From assembly GCA_021790425.1 (NCBI GenBank), contig JAJYEA010000001.1:67015-131014 (forward strand): a stretch of DNA of 64,000 nucleotides, given 5' to 3'. The stretch comes from Thermoplasmata archaeon (GTDB taxonomy: Archaea; Thermoplasmatota; Thermoplasmata; Lutacidiplasmatales; UBA184). The notes below the pieces were generated by a model that saw nothing but the letters and a program-made list of their open reading frames with translations, did no database searches and had not been told where the DNA came from. Shown piece after piece: positions 1 through 61,184 of the stretch (positions within the stretch are counted from its first letter, which is position 1; each line of letters starts with the position of its first letter). Position numbers and translations under genes: made by a program.

Positions 1-2985
1 CCGATCGTGAACTCGCTCGCCTCCACTACCAGCATCGACGTGACCGCCAGCGGATACCTGAACGCCAGCTACACGACCGCCCTGGCCTCCTTCACGCTGA
101 CGAACGTCCCCCACGGGACCTGGACCCTCTACACCTACGGTTACTCGAACGGTTCGACTACGTACGACCGGTACAGCTACATCTCGACCAGCCTCACCCC
201 GGACACCAAGTCGGTCTTCTACCAGAACGTGACCCTCTCGGACAACTTCGTCTCGGGCCACTACCTCCCGAACACCCTGACGTTCAACGCCCCGTCCAAC
301 ATCACGATCTGGGACAGCAACACCTCTCAGGCGTACACCACCTACCAACCGGCCTCCGGTTCCACGTTCTTCCAGACCGGGGTCTACCCGGGCCTGTCGA
401 CCCCGACCAACACCACGTTCCTCGTCTTCCTCGCCCCCCAGGGCTACAACAGCACCTGGCACGAGTTCAAGGTGAGCGATGGTTCCGGCAAGTTCGGATC
501 GGTGAACTACCCCAACTTCATGCCGCCCATCCACCAGGAGAACTCGACGTACACCAACACGTCGATCACCCTGGGCCTGACCAACTCCTCCTGGCGCTAC
601 GCGTTCTCCGCCAACGTCTCGAGCCAGGCCTCGTGGACCAATGACGGCACGTTCGCCCAGCTCCCGAACGCGAGCGTAGGGAACCTCTGGGCCCAGTTGG
701 GATTCGACTTCAACGCGGGCCGCCCCAGCGTGAACAGCGCCGCCTTCACGAAGTTCACGCAGTGGCTCTCCGCCACGGGACCCATCTACCCCGTCCAGGC
801 GATGGGCCTCGGGATGAACGGCACCGTCTTCCAGACGGGCACGAACGTCACCCTCGCCCCGGCCTTCCCGGGGATCGAGAACTACTCGAGCGCCCTCGGA
901 CTCCACTACAACAGCTGGAGCAACTACTCGCTGGGCAAGACCCTGCCCGCCAACTCGAGCTCCTACCATCTCTCGGTCGGGTTCAACTACCCGAGCGTTG
1001 GGGAGTACGCGAACTACACCGTCCACCTGCCCACCGGGTTCGTCCTCAAGAACGGGACCGCCGCCCCGGCCGGGACCAGCATCGTGCCTTCCGGACCGGT
1101 CGGGCCCGGCGGACACCTCTGGACCAGCTTCACGATCCTGCCCAGCCCCTATTCCCGGACCAGCGGAGTGGCGAACTTCACCATCTACAAGGTCGGGAAC
1201 GTGTCCGCGATCGTGAACGTGACCTCCAGCAACTTCGCGTTCTCGTCGAAGAACATACTGAACAGCACCCTGGACAACTACACGGTCGAGGTCGGTTCCA
1301 ACACGAACGACAGCTACACTGCCACCCACTCGCTGGTGCCGGCGACGATGAACGTCACGAGCTTTGTCTGGAACTTCACCTCCAGCCCTTCGGCCTCGTG
1401 CGTGAACTCGAATGGGTTCACCAACCTGACGGCGCAGTGCGTCTACTCGAACGTCTCGACGGTGCACCACATCTTCTCCACGGGAGGGGTCTACCACGGA
1501 ACGCTCACGCTCCGCACGAGCGGCGGTGTCTCGAACACCACCCGGTTCACGACCTACGTGGACAACTCCCCGCCCAGCGCCCACATCAGCGTGAACAACA
1601 CCCACGTGACGGCGCTGAACGCGACCCTCGGTTACCTCTACGTCAACTGGAGCACCCTCCTGCACTTCAACGCCACCGGAAGCGTGGATGAGATCGTGGC
1701 AGGCGGAGGCAACGGGACCTCGAACCTCGGCAACATCTCGGTCGCCAACTGGACGATCCAGGCCGGCTCGACCCACCACTGGGTGAACTACACGGTCGGC
1801 GGCGGTGCGAAGGTCTTCAACAACGTCTCCTACCAGTTCCTCGGCGCGGGCACTTACGTGAAGCACAACCTGACGGTGGATGGGACCCAGCTCTCTCTCA
1901 CCGGATGGGAATACTCGGTGACCCTGACGCTGTGGGACGCGGGCGGCAAGCGCGCCAACGCCACGCTCTACCTCTTGGTGAACGACACCGAGAAGCCGGT
2001 CGCGGTGGCCACGGTCCAGAACGCCCAGGGGAAGAACATCACCGGCGGGCTGGTCGAGCAGCAGAACCACACGGCCGAGGTCCAGCTCCTGGACAACTAC
2101 TCCTACGACCCCCACAACGGGAGCCTGGCCCAGTACTCCTGGTCCGTGCAGAACAGCAAGGGGGAGCACATCTCCGCCTGCAACGTGAACAAGACCGGAC
2201 GGTGCTACTGGAACTCCACCTCGAACGGCAAGTGGTTCCTCTGGCTCGCCCCCTCCACGGGCGCGTACAACTTCACGTTGAACGTGACGGATCTCGCCGG
2301 GAACAAGGCGAACACCACCTACCCGGTGACGGTGGCGCAGAACCTCACCTTCCGCCCGATCATCACGGTCTCGAACCTGACCGCGTCCTCGACGACCATG
2401 ACGGACGGCTCGAGCTACACGATCTCCGTGACCGTGAACAACACCGCCTTCGCGAAGGCCACGGCGTACAACGTCACGGCCAACTTCTACGTGTCCGGAG
2501 CGAACGGCAACGGCAACCAGTCGATCGGAAGCTCTCCGGGCCAGGTCAAGTGGTTCGGCTACGTGGGCTCGGTGGTCAACTCCTCGTCCTCGTACACGGG
2601 GATACTCCCCGCGGAGAAGGCCAACCAGACCTGGAAGGCACAGATCACCTACACCCCGCCCAGCGGCTTCACGGGCACGAAGGAGATCTGGGTCAACGTG
2701 ACGGCGTCGAACGAGTTTTCCGGTGAGTACTCGAGCCACGCGAACATCGCCTCGATCTCGGTGACCATCAACCCCAACCCGCTGACGCAGGACCTCGAAT
2801 ACGTCGCGATCGCGGTGGCGGCCGTGGTGATCATCGTCGTGGCCGTGCTCTTCTACCGCCGGCGCATCGCCGGCCCCTCCTCGGGATCCGGCAAGAAGGA
2901 CAAGAAGTCGGAGAAGGGCTCCAAGGACGACAAGTCCAAGGAGAAGGAAGAGAAGCCCGAGGACGACGAGAAGGAAGAGGACTAG
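1..2985 (+). CDS. cell-surface (S-layer-like) glycoprotein, 5'-partial; C-terminal TM anchor plus Lys/Glu-rich tail
   Basis: Reading frame is open to the window edge. ~990 aa, Asn/Ser/Thr-rich, with dozens of N-x-S/T sequons. C-terminal hydrophobic helix YVAIAVAAVVIIVVAVLFY is followed by RRR and a KKDKKSEKGSKDDKSKEKEEKPEDDEKEED tail. Strong GC3 bias. Confidence 0.65.
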   Translation, partial: PIVNSLASTTSIDVTASGYLNASYTTALASFTLTNVPHGTWTLYTYGYSNGSTTYDRYSYISTSLTPDTKSVFYQNVTLSDNFVSGHYLPNTLTFNAPSNITIWDSNTSQAYTTYQPASGSTFFQTGVYPGLSTPTNTTFLVFLAPQGYNSTWHEFKVSDGSGKFGSVNYPNFMPPIHQENSTYTNTSITLGLTNSSWRYAFSANVSSQASWTNDGTFAQLPNASVGNLWAQLGFDFNAGRPSVNSAAFTKFTQWLSATGPIYPVQAMGLGMNGTVFQTGTNVTLAPAFPGIENYSSALGLHYNSWSNYSLGKTLPANSSSYHLSVGFNYPSVGEYANYTVHLPTGFVLKNGTAAPAGTSIVPSGPVGPGGHLWTSFTILPSPYSRTSGVANFTIYKVGNVSAIVNVTSSNFAFSSKNILNSTLDNYTVEVGSNTNDSYTATHSLVPATMNVTSFVWNFTSSPSASCVNSNGFTNLTAQCVYSNVSTVHHIFSTGGVYHGTLTLRTSGGVSNTTRFTTYVDNSPPSAHISVNNTHVTALNATLGYLYVNWSTLLHFNATGSVDEIVAGGGNGTSNLGNISVANWTIQAGSTHHWVNYTVGGGAKVFNNVSYQFLGAGTYVKHNLTVDGTQLSLTGWEYSVTLTLWDAGGKRANATLYLLVNDTEKPVAVATVQNAQGKNITGGLVEQQNHTAEVQLLDNYSYDPHNGSLAQYSWSVQNSKGEHISACNVNKTGRCYWNSTSNGKWFLWLAPSTGAYNFTLNVTDLAGNKANTTYPVTVAQNLTFRPIITVSNLTASSTTMTDGSSYTISVTVNNTAFAKATAYNVTANFYVSGANGNGNQSIGSSPGQVKWFGYVGSVVNSSSSYTGILPAEKANQTWKAQITYTPPSGFTGTKEIWVNVTASNEFSGEYSSHANIASISVTINPNPLTQDLEYVAIAVAAVVIIVVAVLFYRRRIAGPSSGSGKKDKKSEKGSKDDKSKEKEEKPEDDEKEED

Positions 2986-3030: not shown

Positions 3031-4080
3031 CTAACGGTGGCTGGTGATCTTCTGCGCGAACTTCTTGTAGATTTCGGAGGCCCGCATCACAGCCTCGATC
3101 TTCACGTACTCGTTGGTCTGGTGGGCGAGCTCCTCGGAGCCGGCCCCCAGGATCACCACGCGGGGATTGACGGGCAGGTAGTGCACGGCCTCGGAGGCAT
3201 GCGCGAGCACGACCTTGGGGCCCGCGGCGACCTCCTCCATGATCCGGACATGCTCGGCGTTGGGGTCCACATGGATCGAGGGCATGCTCAGGATCCTCCG
3301 GATGGAGAACTGCGTCTTGATCCGGCGCAGGTGCTCCTCGATCTCCCGCTGGAGCTCCTCGGGTGTGTACGGCGGTGGGAAACGGACGTCGATGTCGCAG
3401 ACGCACCGGGCCGGGACCACGTTGATCCGGGTCCCCCCATTGACCATCCCGATGTTCATGGTCACCTTGCCCATCTCCGAGTGCTCGATACGCCCCTTGA
3501 ACCCCTCGAGGGCCTTCAGGAGCCGCATCATCTTGACGATCGCGTTCTCGCCGAGCTGGGGCATGGCCCCGTGCGCCGCCTTCCCGCGCGCCTCAAGAGC
3601 AAAATCGAGGACCCCCTTCTCCGCGTAACCGACCCGGAGCGCCGTGGGCTCGCCGACCACGATCGCGCGGGCGCGCCGGATGGCCAGGGTCTTGGCCAGA
3701 CTGGCCGCCCCCTCCATCGTGGTCTCCTCATCGGTCGTGAACGCCAGGGTCACCGGCACCTTCCGTGTCACGAGGTCCTGGGCCGACTGGAGCATGGCCA
3801 CGATGCTGCCCTTCATGTCCGAGGCGCCCCGGCCGTACATGCGGCCCGAGGAGATCTGGCTCTGAGAGAAGTTCCACGAATCCCCGATCGGAGGCGTGTC
3901 CAGATGGCCCGAGAAGACCACCCCCCGCTCTCCGTACTCCGCAAGTACCGCCGGGGCGGAGGCGTTGCCGTGCACCGACACGCGCATCTTCAACTGTTCC
4001 GCGAACGACTGGACGTAGTCTAGGATCTCGCGCTTGTTGGAGGAGACGTCGGAAGGGATCGTGATAAGGTCCGACAGCAT
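3031..4080 (-). CDS. M20-family metallopeptidase/deacylase (ArgE/DapE/LysK-like)
   Basis: C-terminal 349 aa of the 717-aa minus ORF has M20 motifs (HLDTPP, GRGASDMKG, TTDEETT). ATG at 4080 (MLSDLITIPS). An AT-rich box (aactatc) lies ~28 nt upstream. The rest of the long ORF is antisense to the IS. Confidence 0.8.
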   Translation of the reverse strand: MLSDLITIPSDVSSNKREILDYVQSFAEQLKMRVSVHGNASAPAVLAEYGERGVVFSGHLDTPPIGDSWNFSQSQISSGRMYGRGASDMKGSIVAMLQSAQDLVTRKVPVTLAFTTDEETTMEGAASLAKTLAIRRARAIVVGEPTALRVGYAEKGVLDFALEARGKAAHGAMPQLGENAIVKMMRLLKALEGFKGRIEHSEMGKVTMNIGMVNGGTRINVVPARCVCDIDVRFPPPYTPEELQREIEEHLRRIKTQFSIRRILSMPSIHVDPNAEHVRIMEEVAAGPKVVLAHASEAVHYLPVNPRVVILGAGSEELAHQTNEYVKIEAVMRASEIYKKFAQKITSHR

Positions 4081-4243
4081 GTCAACCGTCTGCCGCTTCA
4101 CCGAACTATCGCCCTCCCGGCATGCGTAATGTAACCCGGCTATTATACTCTTCGACAAAAGGTTCCTCATGCCCGAGGGGCTCAGGGGGGCGCGCCGGTT
4201 CACCTGCGGCCCTGCACCCGGTGCGCATCGGCATCCCAGGGGG

Positions 4244-4252
4244 CTCAGGGAA
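4244..4252. repeat. 9-bp target-site duplication CTCAGGGAA (left copy)
   Basis: Identical 9-mer at 5586-5594 immediately outside the inverted-repeat termini. Confidence 0.6.
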
Positions 4253-4253
4253 A

Positions 4254-5585
4254 GTGGTGTGCGAAGAATGGTTGATGGCGAGGGTAACCTCTCCCCTGGT
4301 GGGAACCGGAAAGAACCCAACAGGAGGAGAGGCGAATGGAAGGAGACACACACCCGCATATCGATTTTGGAGGACTGCTGTCGAGCGCCGAACACTGGGG
4401 AATACGGGCGTTGGAGCGCCTCCTGGAGGACACCGAGGAGGTCCTCCTGGGGGAGCTCCACCGGGAGAAGACGGAGTGCGGAAGGCAACGCTACGTTCGT
4501 CATGGACGCCGGCCCCGGAACCTCGTCACCAAGATGGGGAAGGTCACGCCCTGGGTGACCCGAGTCCGTGATCGCCTGACCGGGCGGGTCTTCTCCCCCC
4601 TGGTGGAGGCGTTGGGGCTGGGACGGAAGCGCTACACTCCCGAGCTCCGTCTGGCGGCGGCGGAGCTCGCCACCCGCACCTCCTATGAGGAGGCGTCCCA
4701 AGCCCTCGAACGGACCCTGGGCTTCCGCATCCCCCGCCGCACCATCTGGGACTTCCTCCAGGAGTTGGCGGACACCCTGGAGATCACCCTGAAGGAGACC
4801 GCGCCACCCCCTTCGGAGGTGACCCTGAGGCTCAGCCACTCCGTGGACTCCACCTTCGTGCGAGGGAAACGCGCGCGAGAGCAGCACGAGGTGGAGGTAG
4901 CGATCACGCAAGGACAGGACCACCGGGTGAAGCTGGTCGGGGTCGCCATCGACCGGCGCCCCGGTGTGGCCCTTGGGGATACGGAGGTGCACCACCTCAC
5001 CACGGATGACGCGCCGGGGCTGAGGGCCCTGGACGCGGAGCACCGTCAGCTCTGTCACGTGCACTTCGTGCGGCACCTGGCGGGCCTCTTGGGGGAGGAG
5101 GGGGTGAGCCTTAGGGAGCGGGAAGAGATCCTGAGCCCTCTCCGGGGTCTCCTGGCGCACCTGCGGAACTCCGTGGAAGCGCACCGGTATGACGGGAGCG
5201 TGGGAACGGTGACCGAGCGAGTGCGCGTGACGCTGAGGGAACTAGGGGTCGTGGGACTGCGCCTGGAACGAGCCGGGTGCCCCCAGTCGGCCCGCTTCGT
5301 GCTGAGGGAGATGCGATCCTTGGTGGTGTTCGCGGAGGTGGGGAGGGAGCTGTGGATGCCCGCGACCTCCAATGGAGTGGAGCGCGTGATGGGGATGATC
5401 GCGGACCGGTGCAAGCGGAAGTGGGCGCATTGGAACCGAGGGCTTCACAACATGGTGCTGGCGCTCCTTGCCCGCAAGATCCGCCCTGTGGTCTATGGAG
5501 TGGCGACCCGCAAGTATCTAAAGGCGCGAGGCTATGGGTGAGTGGCTTCCGTTAGGGGCGTCGTCTACCATTATCCACACACCAC
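4254..5585 (+). mobile_element. IS256-family insertion sequence (~1.33 kb), complete
   Basis: Terminal inverted repeats GTGGTGTGCGAAGAATGGTTGA (4254-4275) and its counterpart ending ...CACACACCAC (5564-5585) match 18/22 (20/27). They are flanked by the 9-bp direct repeat CTCAGGGAA. A single transposase ORF fills the element. Confidence 0.7.
4336..5541 (+). CDS. IS256-family (Mutator-like) transposase
   Basis: 401 aa. N-terminal region RYVRHGRRPRNLVTKMGKVTPWVTRVRDRLTGRVFSPLVE...SYEEASQALERTLGFRIPRRTIWDF fits the IS256 transposase consensus (R-Y-RNG-R-R-L-T-G-V-VPR-RD-G-F-P-L ... S-V-LE-L-G-S). The C-terminal motif TSNGVERVMGMIADRCKRK also fits. A GGAGGAGAGG Shine-Dalgarno site lies upstream of the ATG. 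Confidence 0.75.
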   Translation: MEGDTHPHIDFGGLLSSAEHWGIRALERLLEDTEEVLLGELHREKTECGRQRYVRHGRRPRNLVTKMGKVTPWVTRVRDRLTGRVFSPLVEALGLGRKRYTPELRLAAAELATRTSYEEASQALERTLGFRIPRRTIWDFLQELADTLEITLKETAPPPSEVTLRLSHSVDSTFVRGKRAREQHEVEVAITQGQDHRVKLVGVAIDRRPGVALGDTEVHHLTTDDAPGLRALDAEHRQLCHVHFVRHLAGLLGEEGVSLREREEILSPLRGLLAHLRNSVEAHRYDGSVGTVTERVRVTLRELGVVGLRLERAGCPQSARFVLREMRSLVVFAEVGRELWMPATSNGVERVMGMIADRCKRKWAHWNRGLHNMVLALLARKIRPVVYGVATRKYLKARGYG

Positions 5586-9659: not shown

Positions 9660-12600
9660 TTACTGGGTACGTGCTCCGGTCGGCGGGGAGGATGGGGCGT
9701 TGCCCGGGGGGGCCTGCTCGGGTCGCTTCGGCTTCCGCGTGAGGACCACTACCGCCACCACGGTGCCCACGATCACGGCCCCGATCAGCGCCCACCAGAC
9801 CCAGTCCGGCGTTCCGCTCCCGCTCGTCGCACTCCCGCTGGCGGCGACCACCGTCACCACCGTCGTCGTGCTCGCCGAGTGCGAGGCCGTGTCCGTCACC
9901 GTCACCGTTACCGTGTAGTTCCCCGTCTGCGTCGGCGTGCACGTCAGCGCGTCCGTGTCCTGGCTCGCGCATCCCGTCGGGAGCCCCGTGTAGGCATACG
10001 TCAGCGCCCCCGACCCGCCCGACGCCGTCACGTAGAGCGTCGTCTGCGCGTTCACCGTCACCGGGCTCGGGGAGGCGTAGAAGCTCTGGATCGTCGGGCT
10101 CCCGGGCGCCGCCAGGACCGTCAGGATCGCCTGGCCCTGTCCGGAGTACCCGTTCGCGTCCGTCACCGTCACGGTCACCGTGAAGGCGCCCGTCACCGTG
10201 CTCACGCACTTGAGCGAGGCCACGTTCGCCGAGAGGCACCCGCTCGGGAGCTGCGCGTAGGCATACATGTAGGGGGACGTCCCGCTCGAGACCGTCACGT
10301 TGAGGTAGCTCGTCCCTCCCAGCGAGACCGTCGCGGGAGAGGCCGTGAACGAGCTCACCACCGGCACCGTGTAGACCGTGAAGGTGGTCTGCGCCGTGGT
10401 CGAGCGCGGCGTGCTCGCCGAGTCGTGCACCGTCACCGTCACGGAGTAGGTCGTGGTGGTGGTGACCGTGGTGGAGCAGACCAGCTGGGTCGCGTTCACG
10501 CTCGGGCAGGTTCCCGGCTGACCGGTGTAGGCGTAGGTCAGCGGCCCCGCTCCGCCCGACGTTCCCACCGACAGGGTGGTGGTGCCCCCCGAGACGAGCG
10601 TGGCCGGGCTCGCCTGGAAGGAGGTGATGGCGGGGGCCGGCGGCAACCCCGCGACGCTCACCGTGAAGGCGGCCGTCTGGGTGACCGAGTGGGGGGTGGA
10701 GGCGGAGTCCGAGACCGTCACGGTCACGGAGTAGGTCGTGGTGGTGGTGACCGTGGTGGAGCAGACCAGCTGGGTCGCGTTCACGCTCGGGCAGGTTCCC
10801 GGCTGACCGGTGTAGGCGTAGGTCAGAGGTCCGACCCCTCCCGAGGCGGAGACGTTGAGGAAGGTGGTGCCGCCCGAGGGGATGGTGGCCGGCGAGGCCG
10901 TGAAGGCGCTGATCGTCGGTCCCGTTCCCACCGGGGCGTTCACTGTGAAGGTGGTCGTCTTCGTCGCCGTGTGGGGAGTGGACGCGGAGTCCGAGACCGT
11001 CACGGTCACCGTGTAGGTCGTGGTGGAGGTGACCGTGGTGGAGCAGACGAGCTGGGTCGCGTTCACGCTCGGGCAGGTTCCCGGCTGACCGGTGTAGGCG
11101 TAGGTCAGAGGTCCGACCCCTCCCGTGGCGGAGACGTTGAGGTAGGTGGTGCCGCCCGAGGGGATGGTGCCGGGCGAGGCGGTGAACGTCGAGATGACCG
11201 GCCCCGTGCCCGGGACGTTCACGGTGAAGGAGGCCGTCTTCGTGGCCGTGTGGGGCGTGGAGGCCGAGTCCGAGACCGTCACCGTCACGGTGTAGGCCGT
11301 GGTGGCCGTGGCCGTGGTGGAACAGACCAGCTGGGTCGCGTTAGCGCTCGGGCAGGATGCCGGCTGACCGGTGTAGGCGTAGGACAGGGGTCCGACCCCT
11401 CCGGTGGCCGTGACGTTGAGGTAGGTGGTGCCGCCCGAGGGGATGATGACCGGCGAGGCCGTGAAGGCGCTGATCGTCGGTCCCGTTCCCACCGGGGCGT
11501 TCACCGTGAAGGTGGCCGTCTTCGTCGCCGTGTGGGGAGTAGACGCGGAGTCGGAGACCGTCACGGTCACGGTGTAGGTCGTGGTGGAGGTGACCGTGGT
11601 GGAACAGACCAGCTGAGTGGCGTTCACGCTCGGGCAGGTTCCCGGCTGACCGGTGTAGGCGTAGGTCAGAGGTCCGACCCCTCCGGTGGCCGTGACGTTG
11701 AGGTAGGTGGTGCCGCCCGAGGGGATGGTGGCCGGCGAGGCGGTAAAGGCGCTGATCGTCGGGCCGCTCACCGCCGTGCCGGTCACGTGGACGGTCACCG
11801 AGTTGGAGGTGGCGGTTGAGCTGCCTCCGGTGACGGTGACGGTGGCCTGGTAGATGCCCGGCGTGGTGTAGGCGTGGGTGGTGTAGTAGGTGGAGGTGGT
11901 GGCGGTCCCTCCGTCTCCGAAGGTCCACGCGTAGGAATAGCCGGTCAGGGAGGCGGGTCCTCCCGCCACGTCAGCGCTGAAGCCCACTCCGAGGGAGGCG
12001 GGGCCGAAGGTCACGTTCGCGCTGAGGATCGCGGTGAGCGTGGCGGTCGGGCTGGGATTGGCGTTCTGTGCCGCCACGAGCTGGGCAAGCTGAGAGACGT
12101 TGAAGCTCCCCAGTCCCGTGACCGCGTCCCACCCGGGGGTGGTGGTGTAGCCGGAACCCGAGACCTTGTTGTTGCCCACGACGATGTCGTGGAACCCGAT
12201 GTGGTAGTTGGAGGTCTTGGCGATCGCGTAGAGGTCGTAGTCCGCCATCCCGTTGGCCTTGGTCGCGGTGCCGTTGTACTGGTACATGATGTCCAGCATG
12301 GCGGCGGAGGCGGGAGTTGCCAGGGACGTGCCCGCGCTCAGGGAGAACTTCGTGCTGAAGCTGCTGTCGTAGAGGACCACCCAGGTTCCGCCGATCGCGG
12401 CGATGTCGGGGATCCCCCGGTGCGTGTTGCTGAATCCGGTCATCCCGGTCTGGTAGGCCGGCGCGGCGATCGTCTTCGAGTAGCCGCCCCCGGACCCCGC
12501 GTCGTTCGCCCCCGTCGACGTGCAGGTGGGGTCGTTCGTGCCGTTCCAGGCGAACTCCGCACGGAAGCCTCCGCTCGGCAGGGGGTAGACCTGGGTTCCG

Positions 12601-14114
12601 CCCACTCCGACGCCGTAGGGGCTGTCCGCCGGCGGGTCCGAGCCGGTGGAAAGGTCAAGGGAACCGCAGTCGCCGCTCGCCGAGAGGTAGCTCTGGCCCT
12701 GGGCGGCCGCCGTCGTCCAGTAGCTCGTCGTGTACGAGGCACCCCAGCTGTTGGAGGTGATGTACACGCCGTTCGAGAGGGTGTTCCAAGTCCCGTCTCC
12801 CTCGTCGATCGCGCTGTTCGACAGGTCGACCTCGAGGGTGGCGTTGGGAGCCATCGAATGGGCCCACTCGATGTCGAGCATCGTCTCGCCCGCCCATCCC
12901 GACGAGCCGGAAGTGCACTTCGCAGCCGTGTTCCCACTGCCGATCAGCTGGAGGGTGCTGGTAGTGAACTGCGGCAGTCCCATCCAGAGGGAGAAGCGGT
13001 TCGCGTCCGCAAGGTAGCTCGTGTAGCTCGGGTCGCACATCTCGTCGAGGCCGATCTTGGTCCCCGCGCCCGTGTGGCCCATGGCGTAGAGGGGAAGGAT
13101 GTCGTAGAAGGTCTGGAGCGTCCGAGGCGAGATCCCGGGGAAGACCCCGACCGTGTAGGTGACGGAGTTCCCGCCGGAGTCGTTCACGAAGACGGTGATG
13201 TTCCAGCAGGCGGCGCTGTTGCAGTAGTCTGCCTGGGCCGGGTTGTAGTACATGTGGAGGGCCTTCAACTGGGCGGCGCTGGTCGTGAAGTGGTTGATCG
13301 TTCCGTCACCCCAGTGCCAGCTGACGGAGTAGGGGGCGGTCCCGCCCGTGATGTTGAGCTGGTAGGAGCCGTTGTAGTTGGTGGGCGGGTTCACAAAGGT
13401 CCCGGTCCCGGCATAGATGAAGAACGGACCGTTCATGCTCATGTTGAGCGTGATCGTGGCCGCGGGGTTGGCCGCCACGGGGGACCCCGCCAGGGGGCTC
13501 CACTGCAGGAGGTTCTGAGGGACCGGGGGGTTCACGGTCTGGAACCCTCCGTCGATCTTGACGAGGGAGGCGAGCGAACTGGGAAGCTGGAGGGGGGTGG
13601 CGGGGTAGTACCCGACGTGACCCGGCGCGCGGGCGGTCACGTAGGTGGTGCCGAAGGCGGCGTCCATGGCGGACGCGGGCCCTTGCACGTTCCACATGAG
13701 CGGGCCGACCGGGCTGACCTGCACACCCTGGCTGGTCAGGTAGCTCTCTAGGGAGGCCTGGGCCTGGGGAGACGGGCCGAAGAGTTCGTTGAACTGGTTT
13801 CCGGTGAGGAACTGATGATACAGGGGGGAAGACGGATCGTACAGGTCCTGGATGAGTTGGGCTTGTCCCTGGGGGTCATGGGTCTGGAACGTCAGCGACC
13901 CCACGACCATGTGGTCCGGGGCGAGGGGCGATCCGAGTGCGAGGTCCGCCGGCCGCACCATGGGCCCTGCCAACGGGACCAGGCTTCCCACAGACGGCGC
14001 CGGTGCGGATGCGACGGTGGCCCCCGCGGCCACGGCCCCTGGAGAGAAGGCCATGAGCATCGCGATGCCGAAGATCAACACTAGGTTCCACTTCACCATG
14101 CCAGACGCCGACAT
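9660..14114 (-). CDS. membrane-anchored surface protease: signal peptide, pro-kumamolisin-like propeptide, sedolisin (S53) catalytic domain, PKD domain, 7 x ~94-aa two-Cys Ig-like repeats, C-terminal TM
   Basis: S53 motifs GWAGETMLDIEW (Glu/Asp) and SAGTSLATPASAAM (SGTS Ser). PKD signature YAWTFGDGGT...THAY. Repeats of the form GPTISAFTASP..GGTTYLNVTATGGVGPLTYAYTGQPGTCPS..LVCSTT..TVTVTVSDSAS. C-terminal helix LIGAVIVGTVVAVVVL plus RKPKR. ATG at 14114 (MSASGMVKWNLVLIFGIAMLMA signal peptide), with TATA-like ccttaaatcc ~30 nt upstream. The track's start at 14216 is a 5' extension. Confidence 0.8.
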   Translation of the reverse strand: MSASGMVKWNLVLIFGIAMLMAFSPGAVAAGATVASAPAPSVGSLVPLAGPMVRPADLALGSPLAPDHMVVGSLTFQTHDPQGQAQLIQDLYDPSSPLYHQFLTGNQFNELFGPSPQAQASLESYLTSQGVQVSPVGPLMWNVQGPASAMDAAFGTTYVTARAPGHVGYYPATPLQLPSSLASLVKIDGGFQTVNPPVPQNLLQWSPLAGSPVAANPAATITLNMSMNGPFFIYAGTGTFVNPPTNYNGSYQLNITGGTAPYSVSWHWGDGTINHFTTSAAQLKALHMYYNPAQADYCNSAACWNITVFVNDSGGNSVTYTVGVFPGISPRTLQTFYDILPLYAMGHTGAGTKIGLDEMCDPSYTSYLADANRFSLWMGLPQFTTSTLQLIGSGNTAAKCTSGSSGWAGETMLDIEWAHSMAPNATLEVDLSNSAIDEGDGTWNTLSNGVYITSNSWGASYTTSYWTTAAAQGQSYLSASGDCGSLDLSTGSDPPADSPYGVGVGGTQVYPLPSGGFRAEFAWNGTNDPTCTSTGANDAGSGGGYSKTIAAPAYQTGMTGFSNTHRGIPDIAAIGGTWVVLYDSSFSTKFSLSAGTSLATPASAAMLDIMYQYNGTATKANGMADYDLYAIAKTSNYHIGFHDIVVGNNKVSGSGYTTTPGWDAVTGLGSFNVSQLAQLVAAQNANPSPTATLTAILSANVTFGPASLGVGFSADVAGGPASLTGYSYAWTFGDGGTATTSTYYTTHAYTTPGIYQATVTVTGGSSTATSNSVTVHVTGTAVSGPTISAFTASPATIPSGGTTYLNVTATGGVGPLTYAYTGQPGTCPSVNATQLVCSTTVTSTTTYTVTVTVSDSASTPHTATKTATFTVNAPVGTGPTISAFTASPVIIPSGGTTYLNVTATGGVGPLSYAYTGQPASCPSANATQLVCSTTATATTAYTVTVTVSDSASTPHTATKTASFTVNVPGTGPVISTFTASPGTIPSGGTTYLNVSATGGVGPLTYAYTGQPGTCPSVNATQLVCSTTVTSTTTYTVTVTVSDSASTPHTATKTTTFTVNAPVGTGPTISAFTASPATIPSGGTTFLNVSASGGVGPLTYAYTGQPGTCPSVNATQLVCSTTVTTTTTYSVTVTVSDSASTPHSVTQTAAFTVSVAGLPPAPAITSFQASPATLVSGGTTTLSVGTSGGAGPLTYAYTGQPGTCPSVNATQLVCSTTVTTTTTYSVTVTVHDSASTPRSTTAQTTFTVYTVPVVSSFTASPATVSLGGTSYLNVTVSSGTSPYMYAYAQLPSGCLSANVASLKCVSTVTGAFTVTVTVTDANGYSGQGQAILTVLAAPGSPTIQSFYASPSPVTVNAQTTLYVTASGGSGALTYAYTGLPTGCASQDTDALTCTPTQTGNYTVTVTVTDTASHSASTTTVVTVVAASGSATSGSGTPDWVWWALIGAVIVGTVVAVVVLTRKPKRPEQAPPGNAPSSPPTGARTQ
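10300..11800. repeat. tandem ~285-bp near-identical coding repeats (5 copies) inside the protease gene
   Basis: A >100-bp identical stretch (cggagtaggtcgtggtggtggtgaccgtggtggagcagaccagctgggtcgcgttcacgctcgggcaggttcccggctgaccggtgtaggcgtaggtcag) recurs at ~10442, ~10727, ~11010, ~11290 and ~11570. Confidence 0.8.
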
Positions 14115-14386
14115 GCGCTGGGCCAACCTCGCAATGTCCTTAAATCCTTGCATGCCCGGGGGAGCGCCCGGCTCGCCCAGGCGACCTCTGAGAATCGAAG
14201 GCCCCGCCGTGGCCACACGGGATCGGTCGGGGCAGCGTGCGGGAAGGCTCCCTCAAAGAAAGGGACCTTGCTGGAAAAGGAAAAGCGGACACTTGCCGAG
14301 GCCGGAGCCTACGGGTGCCTCTTTCCCGGAGCCTGGCTCCGGACCAAGCGGGCCATGACCTCTTCCCCCGCGCGGCCGGCCCGCAC

Positions 14387-15535: not shown

Positions 15536-15548
15536 CGCTCCTTTAAAT
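15536..15548 (+). promoter_or_regulatory. TATA box (cctttaaatgcgc) for the 15583 gene
   Basis: TTTAAA lies ~40 nt upstream of the ATG, flanked by direct GCGCTC repeats. Confidence 0.35.
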
Positions 15549-15582: not shown

Positions 15583-16888
15583 CATGCAGGGAGCGGGGGG
15601 AACGAGCGGACAAGGAGATCCCGAGCGAGAACTCTACCAACGCGTCCTGCTGTTCACCGGAAAGAACTCCCGGAACGGCCAGAAACCGGTGGGTCGCGAA
15701 GACTACTTGCGGAACATGCGCAAGGTCTTCGGCATCGGCAATTTCCAACGCATCGTGGAAACCCTCGGCGCCCTGGACCGCGATGGGCTCCTCAACCTCG
15801 AGTTCCTGGGACCGGATGACTTCCGGGTCGTCGTCACCCCCACCGGGATCGAGTTGATCCGACGGCTCGACCGCGGCGAACCTGCCACGATCCCGGCCGC
15901 AGGCTCCCCCTTGCCAGTCCCACCCCCGCCCCCCCCAGAGCCTGCCGCCGCCGAGCCCGAGGTCACGGAGCCGGTGGCAGAGGCGGAACCGAGCCCTGAA
16001 GAGACCGTCGAGACCGAGGCGCCCGAGGCGGCGCCGGAAGCCGGGGCCGAGGACACCGAAGAGGAGACGCCCTCAACGGAAGAGGAAGTGGCATCCGGAG
16101 AGGAGCAGCCTGCAGCGGAACCCGAGATAGAGCCGGACGGGGTCGCGGAAGCGGCACCGGAAGAGGCCCCCGAGAACGGGGAAGAGGTCCCGGCCGAAGC
16201 CGAGGGAGAGAACCCGGAACTGGTATCCGAAGAGGAGGTTCCGGAGGCGGCTCCCGAGGACGGAGAGGAGGCACCCTCCGACGAAGGGGAGAGTTCCGCA
16301 GAACCCCCCATCACGGACATGATCACCTCGATGCAGGCCACGATGACCCGCGTTCGCGAGAGCCATGCACCCCTTCCCCCCCAGTCCGCACCCCGTGCCG
16401 ACCGACCGTCGCCCCTGGCCGGGCGGCCGGGGACCGGGATGGCCCCCGAGGAGATCCGGGAGGCACGGGAGAACCTCGACCGACGCGAGAAGGTGCTCCG
16501 CGAACGCTCGCGGGGGCTCGCGCAACGCGAGCTCGAACTCAACCAGCGCGAGGAGTCCTTCGACGAGACACGGAAGCTCCTGGAAACCGAGCTCAACCGC
16601 GCCAAGTCCGAGTACGACCGCGTCCTCGCCGAGACACGCGGGCGGCTCTCCAAGCTCGAGGAGCGGGACCGGCGCATCACCGAGCGCGAGAAGACGCTTA
16701 GCACCCGTCTGGCCTCCCTGGAGCAGCGGGAGACCACGCTGGTCCAGCACGCCCAATCCTTGGTCGAACAGGAAGAGTCCCTCGAGGAACTCGAGTCCCG
16801 CCGGGCCGAGACCCGGGAGAACCTGAAGCAGACGCGGGCCGACCTCGACGCGCACGTCCGCCGTCACCAGACCCCTCCCTCCGCGTAG
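15583..16888 (+). CDS. hypothetical protein: N-terminal ~95-aa globular (possibly winged-helix) domain, ~170-aa Pro/Glu/Ala-rich acidic linker, ~180-aa C-terminal coiled coil
   Basis: ATG at 15583 (MQGAGGTSGQG). The track's longer ORF (from 14237) is antisense to the FAH gene. Coiled-coil heptads run through LDRREKVLRERSRGLAQRELELNQREESFDETRKLLETELNRAKSEYDRVLAETRGRLSKLEERDRRITEREKTLSTRLASLEQRETTLVQ. I recognise no family. Confidence 0.6.
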
Positions 16889-16898
16889 GCGCAGCACC

Positions 16899-17447
16899 AT
16901 GACCACCACCTCCCGCGACGTCTCGGTCACGCTCGAGGGGGAGGTATACGTGGGGGAACAGAGCGCTCCCCTGCGCCTGCGGGTCTCCCAGACCCTGGTC
17001 CCCGAGGAGGGGAAGGCGGTCAGCGACGAGGAGGTGACCCGCGCGGCCGCGGCGCTCAAGCGGACGCTCCTCGTCACGCTCAAGACCCTCGGGTCCGAGG
17101 AGTCCGAGCTGCGTCCATCGGTGACGTACTCGGGACCGACCCGGAGCATCGAGGTCCTCCGCGAGATCTACACGCCCCGTTCCCCCGATCACGTCGATGC
17201 GCTGCTCTGGGAGGGGGAGATCAGCCGGGAGGAGCACGGCCTCCTCCTGGGGACCTTGCGCACGCGGGGCGAGACCGTCGCTCCCGCGCCGGCGCACCTT
17301 CCGCGGCCGGTGCCGGTGCTGATCGAGGAGCTCAAGCTCCAGGACATGCGCGACGTCAACCGGGCCCGCGGGAAGCGGGTGATCAGCTACGACGAGTGGC
17401 TGGCGCTCAAACAGCACTTCGCCCGGGTCGGTGCGCCCTCGGCGTGA
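16899..17447 (+). CDS. hypothetical protein (182 aa), co-operonic with the coiled-coil protein
   Basis: Starts 11 nt after the upstream stop. High GC3. No recognisable domain. Confidence 0.5.
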   Translation: MTTTSRDVSVTLEGEVYVGEQSAPLRLRVSQTLVPEEGKAVSDEEVTRAAAALKRTLLVTLKTLGSEESELRPSVTYSGPTRSIEVLREIYTPRSPDHVDALLWEGEISREEHGLLLGTLRTRGETVAPAPAHLPRPVPVLIEELKLQDMRDVNRARGKRVISYDEWLALKQHFARVGAPSA

Positions 17448-20451: not shown

Positions 20452-20540
20452 AGAGGGGGCGTTCCTCGCCGGAGGGAACCCCGAGGACTACGAATGGCTT
20501 ATACGGACATCCAGTCTGGTTGCGGAGGGTGAGGGGTCGC

Positions 20541-22298
20541 ATGCAAGATTTTTCTATTCGGGTGGGGGGAGCCGCCGGAGAGGGTATTGCCACACTGGGC
20601 GAGGGTTTTTGCCGGCTCTTTACGCGCAACGGCTACCACGCCTACGGTCACACCGCCTACCAGTCCGTCATCCGTGGCGGGCACGTCTGGTTCCACGCCC
20701 GCGGTAGCCCGGACCGGATCTGGTCCCTGGGGGACGGGACGGACGTGCTCTACGCCTTGGACCGCCAGACGGTCGACCTCCATGCCCACTCGCTCCGCGG
20801 AGGAGGCATCGTCATCTTCGACCCCGAGAAGTTCACCTTCCCCCCCGAGACGGTCCCGGCCGGGGCGAAGATCCTGCCGATCCCGACACTCGAGATCGCC
20901 CGGAAGTTCGCGAGCGATCCGATCCTTCAGGGCTCGGTGGGGATGGGGGCCGCGACGTACTTCTCCGGGTTGCCGCTGGAGACGCTGGACGCCATCCTGA
21001 CGGAGAATTTTGAGCGCAAGGGCGCGCAGGTCCTCCAACAGAACCTCCAGGCGGCCCACGCGGGATACGAGTTCGCGAAGGGAAAGTCCACCCCCCATCC
21101 CGCGGCGCTGGCCCCCCACCACGGGGAATCGAAGATGCTCCTCACCGGGAACCAGGCGATCGCGCTCGGGGCGGCCGCCGCCGGGTGCAAGCTGCTCTCG
21201 CAGTACCCCATGACACCGGCGACCTCGATCATGCACTGGATGGCCGACCATTCGGTGTCGCTCGGGATCGTCGTGAAGCAGATGGAGGACGAGCTCGGCG
21301 CGATCAATGCCGCCATCGGCGCCTCCCATGCCGGCGTGCGGTCCATGACGGCGTCGAGCGGCGGTGGGTTCTCCCTCATGGTCGAAGCGCTCGGTATGGC
21401 TGCGATGACCGAGACCCCCTTGGTGGTCGCGATCGCCCAGCGCTCGGGCCCGTCCACCGGCCTTCCCACCAAGACCGAGCAGGGGGACCTCAACCTCATG
21501 CTGGGGGCGGGCCAAGGCGAGTTCCCGCGCATCATCCTGGCCCCGGGCGGCGTCGTGGAGGCATACCGGCAGACCATGGACGCGTTCCGGCTGTCGGAGG
21601 ACTGGCAGGTCCCGGCCCTCGTGGCCTCCGACTTCACCCTCTCGGAGGACTTCCAGTCCGCCGACCGGAGCGACTTCGCGACCGACGTCGAACTCCCGTC
21701 CCTGTTCGCGGTCTCGCCCCCCTCCAACGGAAGCAGCTACAAGCGCTACGCGATCACCCCCACGGGGGTCTCTCCCCGGGCCATCCCCGGACAGAAGGGA
21801 CTGGCCTTCACCGCCGGGAGTGATGAGCACGACGAGGGGGGACGCCTGGTCTCGGACGTCCTCGTCGGCACCCCCGCCGCCATCCAGGTACGCAAGCAGA
21901 TGATGGAGAAGCGGATGCGCAAGCTCCACGGGATCGTGGCCGCCACTCCGCCCCCCCCGCTCGAGGGGTCGGCCCATGCGGACGTGACGATCATCGCCTG
22001 GGGCTCCACCGCCTGCCCTGTCCGGGACGCCCTGGGGCTCCTGGCCTCGGAAGGGATCTCGGCGAACCTTCTCTACGTCGCCCAGCCCTACCCGCTCCAC
22101 GCGAAGGAGGTCGCGAAGACCATCCTCACCGCCCGGCAGGTCCTGCTGGTCGAGGCGAACTACTCCGGGGAGCTCGGCCACCTCATCCGGGCCGAGACCG
22201 GGCTCGACATCCCCCACAAGCTCCTGAAGTACGACGGGGAGCCCTTCACCCCCCACGAGATCGTGGAGAAGGTGAAGGAGATCGCGAGGGTGAGGTGA
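20541..22298 (+). CDS. korA: 2-oxoacid:ferredoxin oxidoreductase alpha subunit (two-subunit OFOR; gamma-alpha fusion)
   Basis: N-terminal gamma-like domain (GGAAGEGIATLGE), then the alpha domain (GNQAIALGAAAAGCKLLSQYPMTPATSI). GGAGGGTGAGGGG Shine-Dalgarno site upstream of ATG 20541. Confidence 0.85.
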   Translation: MQDFSIRVGGAAGEGIATLGEGFCRLFTRNGYHAYGHTAYQSVIRGGHVWFHARGSPDRIWSLGDGTDVLYALDRQTVDLHAHSLRGGGIVIFDPEKFTFPPETVPAGAKILPIPTLEIARKFASDPILQGSVGMGAATYFSGLPLETLDAILTENFERKGAQVLQQNLQAAHAGYEFAKGKSTPHPAALAPHHGESKMLLTGNQAIALGAAAAGCKLLSQYPMTPATSIMHWMADHSVSLGIVVKQMEDELGAINAAIGASHAGVRSMTASSGGGFSLMVEALGMAAMTETPLVVAIAQRSGPSTGLPTKTEQGDLNLMLGAGQGEFPRIILAPGGVVEAYRQTMDAFRLSEDWQVPALVASDFTLSEDFQSADRSDFATDVELPSLFAVSPPSNGSSYKRYAITPTGVSPRAIPGQKGLAFTAGSDEHDEGGRLVSDVLVGTPAAIQVRKQMMEKRMRKLHGIVAATPPPPLEGSAHADVTIIAWGSTACPVRDALGLLASEGISANLLYVAQPYPLHAKEVAKTILTARQVLLVEANYSGELGHLIRAETGLDIPHKLLKYDGEPFTPHEIVEKVKEIARVR

Positions 22299-22302
22299 AA
22301 CC

Positions 22303-23205
22303 ATGTCGATCACGAACGAATCGCAGGTCAAGACGACGGGACAACTGCCGGTGATCACGGTCGGGAAGTCCGGGACGAAGCCGACGTGGTGCCCCGGGTG
22401 CGGGGACTACGGGGTCCTCGCCGGGGTCGAGCGCGCGGTGAAGATGCTCGACCTGCCCCCCCACGAGGTCCTGATCGTGAGCGGCATCGGGTGCTCCTCC
22501 AATCTCCCCCACTTCCTGAACTCCTACGGGTTCCACGCCATCCACGGGCGCGCGGTCGCGGTCGCCGAGGGGGCGAAGCTCGCCAACCATGGCCTCCACG
22601 TGATCGTCACGGGAGGGGACGGGGACGGCTACGGCATCGGGGTGGGGCACCTCATCCATGCCATGCGCCGGAACATCGACCTCACTTACGTGGTGATGAA
22701 CAACGAGATCTACGGGCTCACCACGGGCCAGGCGTCCCCCACGAGCCTGATGGGGGCCAAGACCAAGAGCACCCCCCTCGGGGTCATCGAGCAGCCGATC
22801 AACCCCATCGCGCTCGCCCTCTCCTCAGGCGCGACCTACGTGGCCCGGGCCTTCTCGGGCGACGTGAAGCACATGGGGGACATGATCGCCGGCGGGATCC
22901 GGCACAAGGGGTTCTCGCTGATCGACGTGCTCTCCCCCTGCGTGACCTACAACCACCTCAACTCCTACGACTACTTCCGGCAGCGCGTCTACAAGCTCGA
23001 GAACTCGGGCCACGACCCATCCCAGCTCATGAAGGCCTACGAGAAGTCCTTCGAGTGGGAGCCCCGGGTCCCGACGGGACTCTTCTACCAGGTGTCGAAG
23101 CCGACCTACGAGGACCTAGAGCCGGCGCTCAAGGCGGGGCCGCTGGCCCACCAGCCGGTGACGGGTCTGAAGGGGAAACGCGATCTCCTCGAGGAGTTCG
23201 TCTAG
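22303..23205 (+). CDS. korB: 2-oxoacid:ferredoxin oxidoreductase beta subunit (TPP-binding)
   Basis: CPGCGDYG Fe-S motif and GGDGDGYGIG TPP motif. Start lies 5 nt after the korA stop, with an RBS. Confidence 0.9.
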   Translation: MSITNESQVKTTGQLPVITVGKSGTKPTWCPGCGDYGVLAGVERAVKMLDLPPHEVLIVSGIGCSSNLPHFLNSYGFHAIHGRAVAVAEGAKLANHGLHVIVTGGDGDGYGIGVGHLIHAMRRNIDLTYVVMNNEIYGLTTGQASPTSLMGAKTKSTPLGVIEQPINPIALALSSGATYVARAFSGDVKHMGDMIAGGIRHKGFSLIDVLSPCVTYNHLNSYDYFRQRVYKLENSGHDPSQLMKAYEKSFEWEPRVPTGLFYQVSKPTYEDLEPALKAGPLAHQPVTGLKGKRDLLEEFV

Positions 23206-23439: not shown

Positions 23440-23483
23440 TGCGGTGCGATGTCCCCAAATACCCGCCGACTTTAAAGGCGCGC

Positions 23484-23568
23484 GCTGGCGTAGCCAAGTC
23501 TGGTCAACGGCAACGGACTCAAGATCCGTTCTCGCAGGAGTTCCCAGGTTCAAATCCTGGCGCCAGCA
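23484..23568 (+). tRNA. tRNA-Leu (anticodon CAA), class II with long variable arm
   Basis: Hand-folded cloverleaf. Acceptor GCTGGCG/CGCCAGC, U8, A14, G18G19. Anticodon stem ACGGA/TCCGT with loop CTCAAGA (U33, G37). 14-nt variable arm. T arm CCAGG-TTCAAAT-CCTGG. Discriminator A. No encoded CCA. Confidence 0.8.
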
Positions 23569-44246: not shown

Positions 44247-44321
44247 GGGACTGTGGGGTAGCTTGGTCCATCCTATGGCGTTCGGGACGCTGTGACTCCG
44301 GTTCAAATCCGGACAGTCCCA
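44247..44321 (+). tRNA. tRNA-Pro (anticodon CGG)
   Basis: Hand-folded. Acceptor GGGACTG/CAGTCCC, U8, A14, G18G19, A21. Anticodon stem TGGCG/CGCTG (two G-U pairs) with loop TTCGGGA (U33, G37). T arm TCCGG-TTCAAAT-CCGGA. Discriminator A. Confidence 0.7.
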
Positions 44322-44343
44322 CTCCTCAGCCGCGATGGGTTCC

Positions 44344-56090: not shown

Positions 56091-56684
56091 ATGAGCGCCA
56101 GACCGGTAGCCCTACCGGGGGGCCATGGACTCTACGAAGTACGATTCCACGGACGCGGAGGGCAGGGGACGGTCATCGCGTCCACGCTCCTGGCGGAAGC
56201 TGCCTTCCTCGAAGGCCGGGACGTGCAGGCCTTCCCCTTCTTCGGTGTCGAGCGCCGGGGAGCGCCCGTGCTGGCGCACACCCGGATCGGGGAGGGACAG
56301 ATCCGGCTGGCCACCTCGGTCCGCTATCCGGACGCGATCATCGTGATGGACCCCACGCTCGTGCGGCCGGGCAGCCCGATCTTCGCGAGCCTTCGCGCGG
56401 GTGGGGACGTCCTGGTCAACACCGTGCGGCCCCCTCGGGAGCTTCAACTGGCCGTGGACGGCCACCTGGCCTCCGTGGACGCCGTGAGCGTCGCGATCCG
56501 TCACGGGCTGGGGTCGCGGGCGAACCCGATCGTGAACACGGTCATCCTGGGAGCCTTTGCGAAGCTCACCCACGTGGTGGAACTCTCCTCGCTCGAGGAG
56601 GCCATCCGGCAGAAGGTGCCCTCCCACACCGATGCGAACATCGCGGCCGCGCGTGAGGCCTACGGGCTCGTGGAGGCCGCATGA
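56091..56684 (+). CDS. porG: pyruvate/2-ketoisovalerate:ferredoxin oxidoreductase gamma subunit
   Basis: YEVRFHGRGGQGTVIAS...FPFFGVERRGAPV. Confidence 0.9.
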   Translation: MSARPVALPGGHGLYEVRFHGRGGQGTVIASTLLAEAAFLEGRDVQAFPFFGVERRGAPVLAHTRIGEGQIRLATSVRYPDAIIVMDPTLVRPGSPIFASLRAGGDVLVNTVRPPRELQLAVDGHLASVDAVSVAIRHGLGSRANPIVNTVILGAFAKLTHVVELSSLEEAIRQKVPSHTDANIAAAREAYGLVEAA

Positions 56685-56953
56685 CGACCCTCGCCGGGCG
56701 CGATCTCATCGGGCCCATGGCGTGGATGTCCAGCGAGCCGGGTTCCACGGCCGCCTCGTGGCGGACCCAGCGCCCGCAGCTTGACACGGCCAAGTGCACG
56801 GGATGCATGGTCTGCTGGAAGTTCTGCCCGGACACGGCGATCGCCCCGGAAGGGAAGAAGGTCGCGTTCGACTTCAACCTCTGCAAGGGATGCGGCGTCT
56901 GTGCCCAGGTCTGCGCACCGAAGGCCATCGACATGCTCCCGGAGGGCCTCTGA
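56681..56953 (+). CDS. porD: pyruvate:ferredoxin oxidoreductase delta subunit (2 x [4Fe-4S] ferredoxin)
   Basis: CTGCMVCWKFCP and CKGCGVCAQVCAP. Start overlaps the porG stop (ATGA). Confidence 0.9.
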   Translation: MTTLAGRDLIGPMAWMSSEPGSTAASWRTQRPQLDTAKCTGCMVCWKFCPDTAIAPEGKKVAFDFNLCKGCGVCAQVCAPKAIDMLPEGL

Positions 56954-61165: not shown

Positions 61166-61184
61166 GGTCGCGGGGGCTTGAACC

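Follow-up and report, generated by a model that had tools for sequence, protein, structure and literature searches.

Proteins that join a winged-helix or helix-turn-helix (HTH) head to a coiled coil have been described in archaea and in bacteria. In the Sulfolobales, Sso10a (Sul10a) has an N-terminal winged helix, arranged alpha1-beta1-alpha2-alpha3-beta2-beta3-alpha4, that is followed by a dimerizing coiled coil, and the protein, with its two heads held apart on an antiparallel rod, both bends and bridges DNA (PMC4941522). In the Firmicutes, RacA, RocS, and RicO have a small HTH or winged-helix domain at the N terminus that binds DNA, a coiled coil that interacts with itself, a disordered region, and, in some cases, a membrane helix, and they tether origin-proximal DNA to the pole or the membrane (bioRxiv 10.64898/2026.03.06.710092). 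Here, we describe a gene with a comparable layout within a 64,000-nucleotide stretch of contig JAJYEA010000001.1 from a Thermoplasmata archaeon (hereafter, the window). The gene encodes a protein that we call A and is followed by a second gene encoding a protein that we call B. We conclude that A and B represent two protein families that are absent from Pfam and NCBIfam, have a narrow distribution, and are built of known modules. We tentatively propose that A is a self-associating cytoplasmic tether whose long arms carry winged-helix heads and that B is an accessory protein specific to its lineage, a reading that we hold to be possible rather than probable.

Two further systems serve for comparison. 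PopZ, an alphaproteobacterial protein, consists of a short N-terminal client-binding element, an acidic disordered linker rich in Pro, Glu, and Asp, and a C-terminal helical oligomerization domain. In CdvA of the Crenarchaeota, an N-terminal PRC beta-barrel is combined with a coiled coil and with a short, conserved tail at the C terminus that binds ESCRT-III, and the gene forms a cluster with cdvB and cdvC. To our knowledge, chromosome organization and the cell cycle machinery of the Thermoplasmatota are almost unknown, and many of the factors found in the Sulfolobales and haloarchaea are lacking there.

Genes A and B and their putative promoter

The window is archaeal chromosomal DNA that encodes an S13-S4-RpoD ribosomal and RNA polymerase cluster, aconitase, fumarase, TIM, and POR, as well as a 2-oxoacid dehydrogenase complex and large S53 peptidases. 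An earlier note, made from the sequence alone, had proposed two forward-strand open reading frames (ORFs) at this locus, with A starting at 15583, encoding 435 amino acids (aa), and separated from B by 11 nucleotides (nt). Both ORFs are present, but A starts with an ATG at 15584, encodes 434 aa, and is separated from B by 10 nt (Table 1). The mechanical ORF of A extends 5′ to position 14237, and the extension overlaps a convergent-strand FAA-hydrolase gene. In three independent assemblies, the gene is likewise called at 434 aa, and the N-terminal sequence MQGAG is common to A and its orthologue P0003. The GC content at the three codon positions was coding-like for both genes (0.77/0.49/0.81 for A and 0.72/0.48/0.92 for B). 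Moreover, the identity of A to P0003, 49% overall, depends on the region: 67% in the winged helix, 33% in the linker, 61% in a short motif that follows the linker, and 61% in the coiled coil. The window has a GC content of 59 to 72% across 2-kb windows, and chance ORFs of a high-GC genome are ruled out by the codon-position GC and the region-specific conservation. Based on those two properties and the existence of homologues, we conclude that A and B are real genes.

A TTTAAA sequence is located at positions 15542 to 15547, 36 nt 5′ of the ATG of A, and is one of only two in the 64 kb. The surrounding octamer, CTTTAAAT, is invariant and equally distant from the A orthologues at two related loci, L005 and L009, such that the box is kept in three lineages, in agreement with the claim that A has a TTTAAA box of its own. 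No AT-rich octamer, defined as having A or T at six or more positions, occurs between positions 15742 and 17520, and thus B lacks a TATA-like box of its own and is most simply cotranscribed with A. We conclude that, in the closest relatives, B is most simply transcribed from the TATA box of A. The strong canonical box also suggests that expression of A is abundant rather than at the level of a regulator. We note that, in the segment from 23471 to 23568 (forward strand), the second TTTAAA of the window precedes tRNA-Leu(CAA) by just 8 nt, counted to the 5′ end of the tRNA. This gap is too short for standard TATA-to-start spacing, provided that the tRNA is correctly placed and that the box has no other role.

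The head of A is a winged helix

The first ~95 residues of A had been suggested to form a domain, possibly a winged helix, and a structure model agrees with both the length and the topology. AlphaFold2 (AF2) predicted the order helix-beta-helix-helix-beta-beta-helix, with a predicted local distance difference test score (pLDDT) of 75 and a predicted TM score (pTM) of 0.64, from an alignment of two sequences. The head thus has the H1-beta1-H2-H3-beta2-wing-beta3 topology of the winged-helix superfamily, where H denotes a helix. When a profile of 17 family heads was compared to the PDB, the best match was a MarR-family chain (E = 0.053), with the region from H3 through the wing to an LTxxG sequence in register. 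Searches of Pfam and NCBIfam with the same 17 heads returned scattered subthreshold matches (E of 0.016 or above), mostly to winged-helix families. We conclude that the fold of the head is a winged helix and that the head falls outside every described family.

Invariant or nearly invariant residues of the head are L17, F24, S29, R38, R43, N44, F80, and T85. The polar residues among them are located on the H1-beta1 loop and helix 2, where S29, R38, R43, and N44, together with Lys or Arg in neighboring columns, form a conserved basic patch.

The head is joined to a coiled coil by a disordered spacer

The region C-terminal to the head was described in the earlier note as a disordered acidic linker rich in Pro, Glu, and Ala, and its composition bears this out (Table 1). 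The linker is only 33% identical to that of P0003, with insertions and deletions. Across the family, linkers, taken as the residues between position 100 and the beginning of the C-terminal part that is free of Pro, are 62 to 188 aa long, contain 12 to 40% Pro, and have net charges of +1 to −46. Because length and composition vary and Pro richness is constant, we regard the linker as a spacer and not as a folded domain. Two conserved elements, neither of which the earlier note had pointed out, are the motif at aa 241 to 267 (PPITDMITSMQATMTRVRESHAPLPPQ) and a basic tail at the C terminus. The motif is conserved with P0003 to the extent given above, inside an otherwise variable region, and has the form P-x-I-T/S-x-h-h. 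It is present in the three B-adjacent homologues, P0005, and P0013 and is lacking in other family members.

The C-terminal part of A is rich in Glu, Arg, and Leu and is free of Pro over 142 aa (aa 289 to 430). Hydrophobic residues recur there with a period of 3.5 residues over 143 residues (z = 4.6, reached by 4 of 2,000 shuffles), with no signal at 3.6, and six homologues have the same 3.5-residue period (z of 2.1 to 7.2). The heptad character ascribed to this region is therefore upheld, but over ~143 aa rather than the ~180 aa first proposed. An unbroken heptad register marks the region as a coiled coil and not as one amphipathic helix. An alignment of eight members extends over ~140 aa with few insertions or deletions and closes with an AHxxLxEHVKKHR-like basic tail. 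Two members contain a Pro/Gly break at the midpoint, and a helical hairpin is thus possible for this domain.

Database matches of the C-terminal domain amounted to coiled-coil noise, with low scores to SMC-like models and a subthreshold match to RNase_Y_N. The N-terminal region of RNase Y (PF12072) scored 24.2 bits against the full protein and 28.7 bits against the C-terminal domain alone, below the cutoff of 32, and A has none of the transmembrane segment, KH domain, or HD domain of RNase Y. The N terminus of A is polar, and searches for a transmembrane segment or signal peptide found none; the most hydrophobic 19-residue window scored 0.76 in A, within the head, and 0.79 in B. Signal peptides and transmembrane or lipobox anchors, as would mark an S-layer anchor or secreted surface protein, are likewise missing. 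As A lacks both a transmembrane segment and a signal peptide, we conclude that it is cytoplasmic.

A and B belong to small families of uncultured archaea

A HMMER scan of 1.84 billion representative proteins with the head profile returned 19 family members at an E value of up to 1e-3. Three of these are short (90 to 125 aa) and one, P0021 (1,351 aa), is a weak match in multiple stretches; the others are 300 to 564 aa long with the head at the N terminus, and most of them carry a Pro-rich linker of 62 to 188 aa and a helical C-terminal part, rich in Glu, Arg, and Leu, of 138 to 379 aa. A word-index search of 5.8 billion clusters returned one orthologue of A, P0003, aligned across 99% of its length, and one of B, P0002 (54% identity), and the same search with the head alone returned no match, not even the query. 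The query itself was missed because the exact 434-aa sequence is lacking from the 15-billion-protein collection. Housekeeping proteins of the source genome have just two or three members per 90%-identity cluster, and thus the lineage is very thinly sampled. Pattern scans for A and B found no relatives in 185,579 GTDB species representatives, and tblastn found none in phage and plasmid collections. A Natrinema regulator of the HVO_A0114 family (E = 4e-3) was dismissed as a chance match, as its alignment to A is out of register with its own winged helix.

The organism is named for one member of an A cluster, "Candidatus Thermoplasmatota archaeon" (MCL4324039.1), and archaeal hosts are confirmed by the genes for TBP, TiaS, and geranylgeranyl reductase that neighbor A homologues. 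We conclude that the A family is so far confined to a few uncultured archaeal lineages, probably of the Thermoplasmatota.

Profile searches of Pfam, NCBIfam, and PADLOC with A, its head, its C-terminal domain, B, and fragments of B gave nothing above threshold. Sequence and profile searches of the PDB with the head, the C-terminal domain, and B gave only the weak MarR match and coiled-coil noise. With regard to antiphage defense, the PADLOC models matched A only as coiled-coil noise at 20 bits or less and did not match B. These searches agree with the initial failure to place either protein in a characterized family.

B is a 182-aa protein, and the earlier statement that it has no recognizable motifs stands: searches of Pfam, NCBIfam, PADLOC, and the PDB found neither a family nor a fold. 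B and its fragments had no Pfam match even at an E value of up to 10. The AF2 model of B is of low confidence (pLDDT of 67, pTM of 0.37) and contains a beta-hairpin and a long helix, followed by two three-helix segments. A twice-occurring G-x-I-S/T-x-E-E-aromatic sequence resembles a SHOCT repeat and was rejected, as Pfam PF09851 was unmatched. An internal duplication was also rejected, as hhalign of the two segments was not significant (P = 0.056).

The A-B pair is a clade-specific arrangement

A hidden Markov model (HMM) for B placed a B gene directly 3′ of A in the window and at loci L004, L005, and L009, with spacers of 10, 48, 9, and 21 nt, respectively, and a convergent Mrp/NBP35 gene follows B wherever the contig continues past it. 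Homologues of B, 43 to 54% identical, were found only at L004, L005, L006, and L009, such that B is known from five contig lineages in total. At L006, B (43% identity) adjoins an S53 peptidase gene and A is lacking within 6 kb. Conversely, A occurs without B at eight loci (L007, L010, L011, L013, L014, L017, L019, and L022). The claim of a two-gene unit therefore holds for the window and the three loci at which the genes adjoin and does not hold elsewhere. Because B lies beside A only in the closest relatives, we conclude that the pair is a clade-specific arrangement and not a universal module.

Away from B, the neighbors of A differ from lineage to lineage. The A homologue is flanked by genes for an MFS transporter and PMSR at L007/L008, adjoins TiaS at L010, and lacks B at L017/L018. 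At L011 (4684 to 8169) and L012, genes for prefoldin alpha, FtsY, A (P0007), a SpoU methylase, and a 134-aa unknown protein are on one strand with tiny gaps. In distant branches (L014 to L016 and L019/L020), an A homologue heads a conserved cluster with genes for a Zn-ribbon protein (79 to 89 aa), a VWA protein (472 to 478 aa), a P-loop NTPase, an unknown protein (561 to 580 aa), and a DUF2116 protein. The P-loop NTPase (407 to 425 aa) has a G4-like SKAD motif and is 75% identical between L014 and L019. The A-headed VWA/P-loop NTPase cluster is a putative uncharacterized operon and is lacking from the 64-kb window.

Genes for Cdv, ESCRT, FtsZ, SepF, MinD, and SMC proteins were not consistently adjacent to A, and in only one lineage was FtsZ encoded 5 kb away. 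The earlier comparison of A to tethering, cytoskeletal, or cell division adaptors was drawn from architecture and is weakened, as no cell division, SMC, or Cdv gene is consistently nearby.

A model for A and its alternatives

We read A as a tether because both ends and one short helix are conserved and neither the length nor the charge of the spacer in the middle is constant. At the C terminus, the conserved coiled coil of ~140 residues would self-associate A into a dimer or higher oligomer, and each chain would carry a MarR/PadR-like winged-helix head at the tip of a Pro-rich, strongly acidic spacer of 140 to 190 residues. Due to the fold class and the conserved basic patch, nucleic acid is the most likely ligand of the head, and, judging from sequence, the heads would most likely bind DNA via this patch. 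One A particle could hold at least two distant DNA sites together or could link DNA to a ligand of the rod or tail, and the acidic arm of this lineage would hold the rod off the DNA or autoinhibit the head. Such a particle would operate on the same principle as Sso10a and RacA/RocS/RicO, modified by a long entropic spacer that separates head from rod and repels DNA. B may be a lineage-specific accessory that possibly docks on the conserved linker helix at aa 241 to 267.

Several observations weigh against the tether. The predicted recognition helix H3 varies and is not basic across the family, the tip of the wing is acidic (GPDD), and the winged-helix core carries little net charge (−1 to +4), and therefore a protein-binding head is equally conceivable. 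The head model, moreover, was built on only two aligned sequences. A and B each stand alone in other lineages, neighborhoods vary by lineage and offer no functional hint, and the correlation between the motif and B is drawn from about ten loci, mostly on short contigs.

One way in which the head could bind protein is if A is a scaffold or adaptor that links a partner to a coiled-coil assembly in the manner of PopZ or CdvA, with cell division, membrane remodeling, or a polar or hub condensate as the setting. Winged helices that bind protein are found in ESCRT-II, kleisins, and cullins. Consistent with a scaffold, the conserved surface of A is on helix 2 and the H1-beta1 loop and not on the recognition helix, and the wing is acidic on a near-neutral domain. 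The long Pro/Glu-rich linker and helical oligomerization domain likewise resemble those of hub proteins, and the VWA protein and P-loop NTPase of the clusters that A heads in two distant branches are typical components of protein assemblies. We nonetheless consider a scaffold rather unlikely, as none of the division, ESCRT, or SMC genes named above is consistently adjacent, the CdvA, PopZ, and kleisin profiles are unmatched, and a membrane-targeting element is lacking. A might also be an ordinary MarR/PadR-like transcription factor with a long tail, in which the coiled coil serves only for dimerization and which regulates itself and B or its neighbors. The nearest winged helices are indeed those of MarR, PadR, and RosR regulators, and the short cotranscribed gene B could be a target or a cofactor. 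However, MarR/PadR-type regulators dimerize by helices flanking the winged helix and lack disordered spacers of 60 to 190 residues and coiled coils of 140 to 380 residues. Moreover, their family models are unmatched, the recognition helix varies among orthologues that have the same promoter sequence, the neighborhood is not conserved, and the strong TATA box suggests abundant expression. We therefore consider a transcription factor distinctly unlikely.

Whether A and B work together is a separate question, and its answer is to be weighed apart from the tether, scaffold, and transcription factor readings. B could be an independent orphan that shares a transcript with A in one clade, as might be expected from its solitary occurrence beside the S53 peptidase gene at L006 and from the eight loci at which A is alone or with other genes. 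We find this doubtful, as adjacency, orientation, and short spacers have been kept in four lineages while the proteins diverged to ~50% identity, B has no promoter box, and the linker motif of A is present only where B adjoins, plus P0005 and P0013. P0013 and the contig with B only (L006) share a source metagenome, and a tetranucleotide correlation of 0.86 between L006 and the A-only contig of P0013 (L017) is compatible with one genome, albeit not decisive. Co-occurrence of the motif with B may point toward a link between the two proteins.

In a more specific version of this reading, the A family, restricted to the Thermoplasmatota, would tether the nucleoid or the origin or would form a hub as a scaffold, with a function analogous to that of RacA/RocS/RicO or PopZ. 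The rods would assemble into a higher-order structure, the heads would extend from it on acidic arms of 140 to 190 residues that repel DNA, and B would be an adaptor on the linker helix. We regard this version as a long shot; if true, archaea would have their first described factor of this type for organizing or positioning the chromosome. If A instead serves ordinary gene regulation, it is just another lineage-specific hypothetical protein. As a conserved and apparently well-promoted protein, A offers a concrete candidate for a tether or scaffold associated with the nucleoid.

Coordinates and other features of the window

Table 1. Coordinates of the A-B locus, the regions of protein A, and the cluster headed by A homologues on other contigs
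Feature	Position	Strand	Description
Archaeal TATA box CTTTAAAT	15541..15548	+	Read as promoter of the A-B transcript
Gene A	15584..16888	+	434 aa; ATG at 15584, TAG stop at 16886-16888; from translation
Winged-helix domain, aa 13-96	15620..15871	+	H1, beta1, H2, H3, beta2, wing, beta3, H4
Pro/Glu/Ala-rich disordered linker, aa 101-240	15884..16303	+	E 31%, P 19%, A 19%; net charge −48
Short conserved motif PPITDMITSMQATMTRVRESHAPLPPQ, aa 241-267	16304..16384	+	Candidate docking helix
Coiled-coil domain, aa 288-430	16445..16873	+	Heptad region, ends in conserved basic His-rich tail (DLDAHVRRH)
A-B spacer	16889..16898	+	10 nt; from sequence
Gene B	16899..17447	+	182 aa; orphan partner protein
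A-headed cluster	L014:6001-12504; L019:431-6277 (also L015, L016, L020)		Gap after A of 105 nt (L014) and 15 nt (L019)

Elsewhere in the window, giant S53 (pro-kumamolisin) peptidases with long arrays of PKD and Ig-like repeats are encoded at 9660 to 14216 (reverse strand), where the product has a C-terminal transmembrane anchor, and at 51711 to 55958 (forward strand). Homologous S53 peptidase genes flank A or B homologues at L006 and L017. In a 982-aa protein encoded at 48610 to 51558 (forward strand), PKD and SprB-type repeats come after a GH25 muramidase (lysozyme) domain; such a peptidoglycan hydrolase would not be expected in an archaeon and may serve against bacteria or in feeding. Near the edge of the window, a 992-aa ORF at 7 to 2985 (forward strand), with a GC content at third codon positions (GC3) of 0.94, encodes a large uncharacterized protein that had no Pfam match at an E value of up to 1e-5. 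ORFs at 3031 to 5184 (reverse strand) and 4336 to 5541 (forward strand) overlap on opposite strands and are both coding-like (GC3 of 0.81 and 0.82); one encodes an M20 peptidase domain in its C-terminal half and has a long N-terminal extension that is probably spurious, and the other weakly matches UPF0236 (transposase-like). Genes of the 2-oxoacid dehydrogenase complex (E1 alpha-type, lipoyl E2, and a second E1) are at 59145 to 63562 (forward strand), ferredoxin-dependent POR genes are at 20520 to 23205 and 56091 to 58125, and a tRNA-Pro(CGG) is at 44247 to 44322.

Comparison with known systems

Winged-helix regulators of the MarR/PadR type (including AF1382, RosR, PH0730, and TubR) are close to the head of A in fold. 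A lacks the MarR dimerization helices, and its head is joined to ~330 further residues that are alien to those families. MarR, PadR, and ArsR proteins bind specific operators through a conserved recognition helix and a basic wing; in the A family, the exposed positions of H3 vary, and GPDD occupies the wing tip. No MarR, PadR, or ArsR profile in Pfam or NCBIfam matched the window protein at an E value of up to 1, let alone above a curated cutoff, and none of the 17 family heads had a MarR or PadR match in either database. A is also distinct from the SMC and kleisin adaptors, as the ScpA, ScpB, and MukF profiles were unmatched and smc was not consistently adjacent.

Like A, CdvA is archaeal and pairs a globular N-terminal domain with a coiled coil, ending in a short conserved tail. 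The N-terminal domain of A, however, is an alpha/beta winged helix and not a PRC barrel, the CdvA profile was unmatched, and genes for Cdv, Snf7, and Vps4 were found in 0 of 12 neighborhoods. PopZ lacks a winged helix, and A has neither sequence similarity to PopZ nor a match to its profile.

The RacA, RocS, and RicO proteins are bacterial and have a MerR-type HTH, and their coiled coil comes directly after it; the disordered region stands at the end with the amphipathic membrane helix, which is C-terminal in RocS and RicO. In A, the order is head, disordered spacer, and coiled coil, and the tail is basic and polar rather than a hydrophobic amphipathic helix. With no MerR profile match and a different domain order, A is not a member of the RacA/RocS/RicO group. 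Sso10a, like A, combines a winged-helix head with a coiled coil, and 1 of the 17 heads of the A family gave a weak match to Sso10a_fam (E = 0.017), although none of the searches made here related the sequences significantly. Sso10a differs in being a crenarchaeal protein of ~95 aa in which the coiled coil directly extends alpha4, and the disordered spacer, 140-residue rod, and basic tail of A are all missing from it. Sso10a family proteins match NF053610, are ~10 kDa, and continue from alpha4 into an antiparallel coiled coil; A has none of these properties and carries a disordered insert of 140 residues instead. Since A thus belongs neither to Sso10a nor to RacA, RocS, and RicO, we conclude that A may work like these proteins, with a winged-helix head and a coiled coil, but is not one of them.

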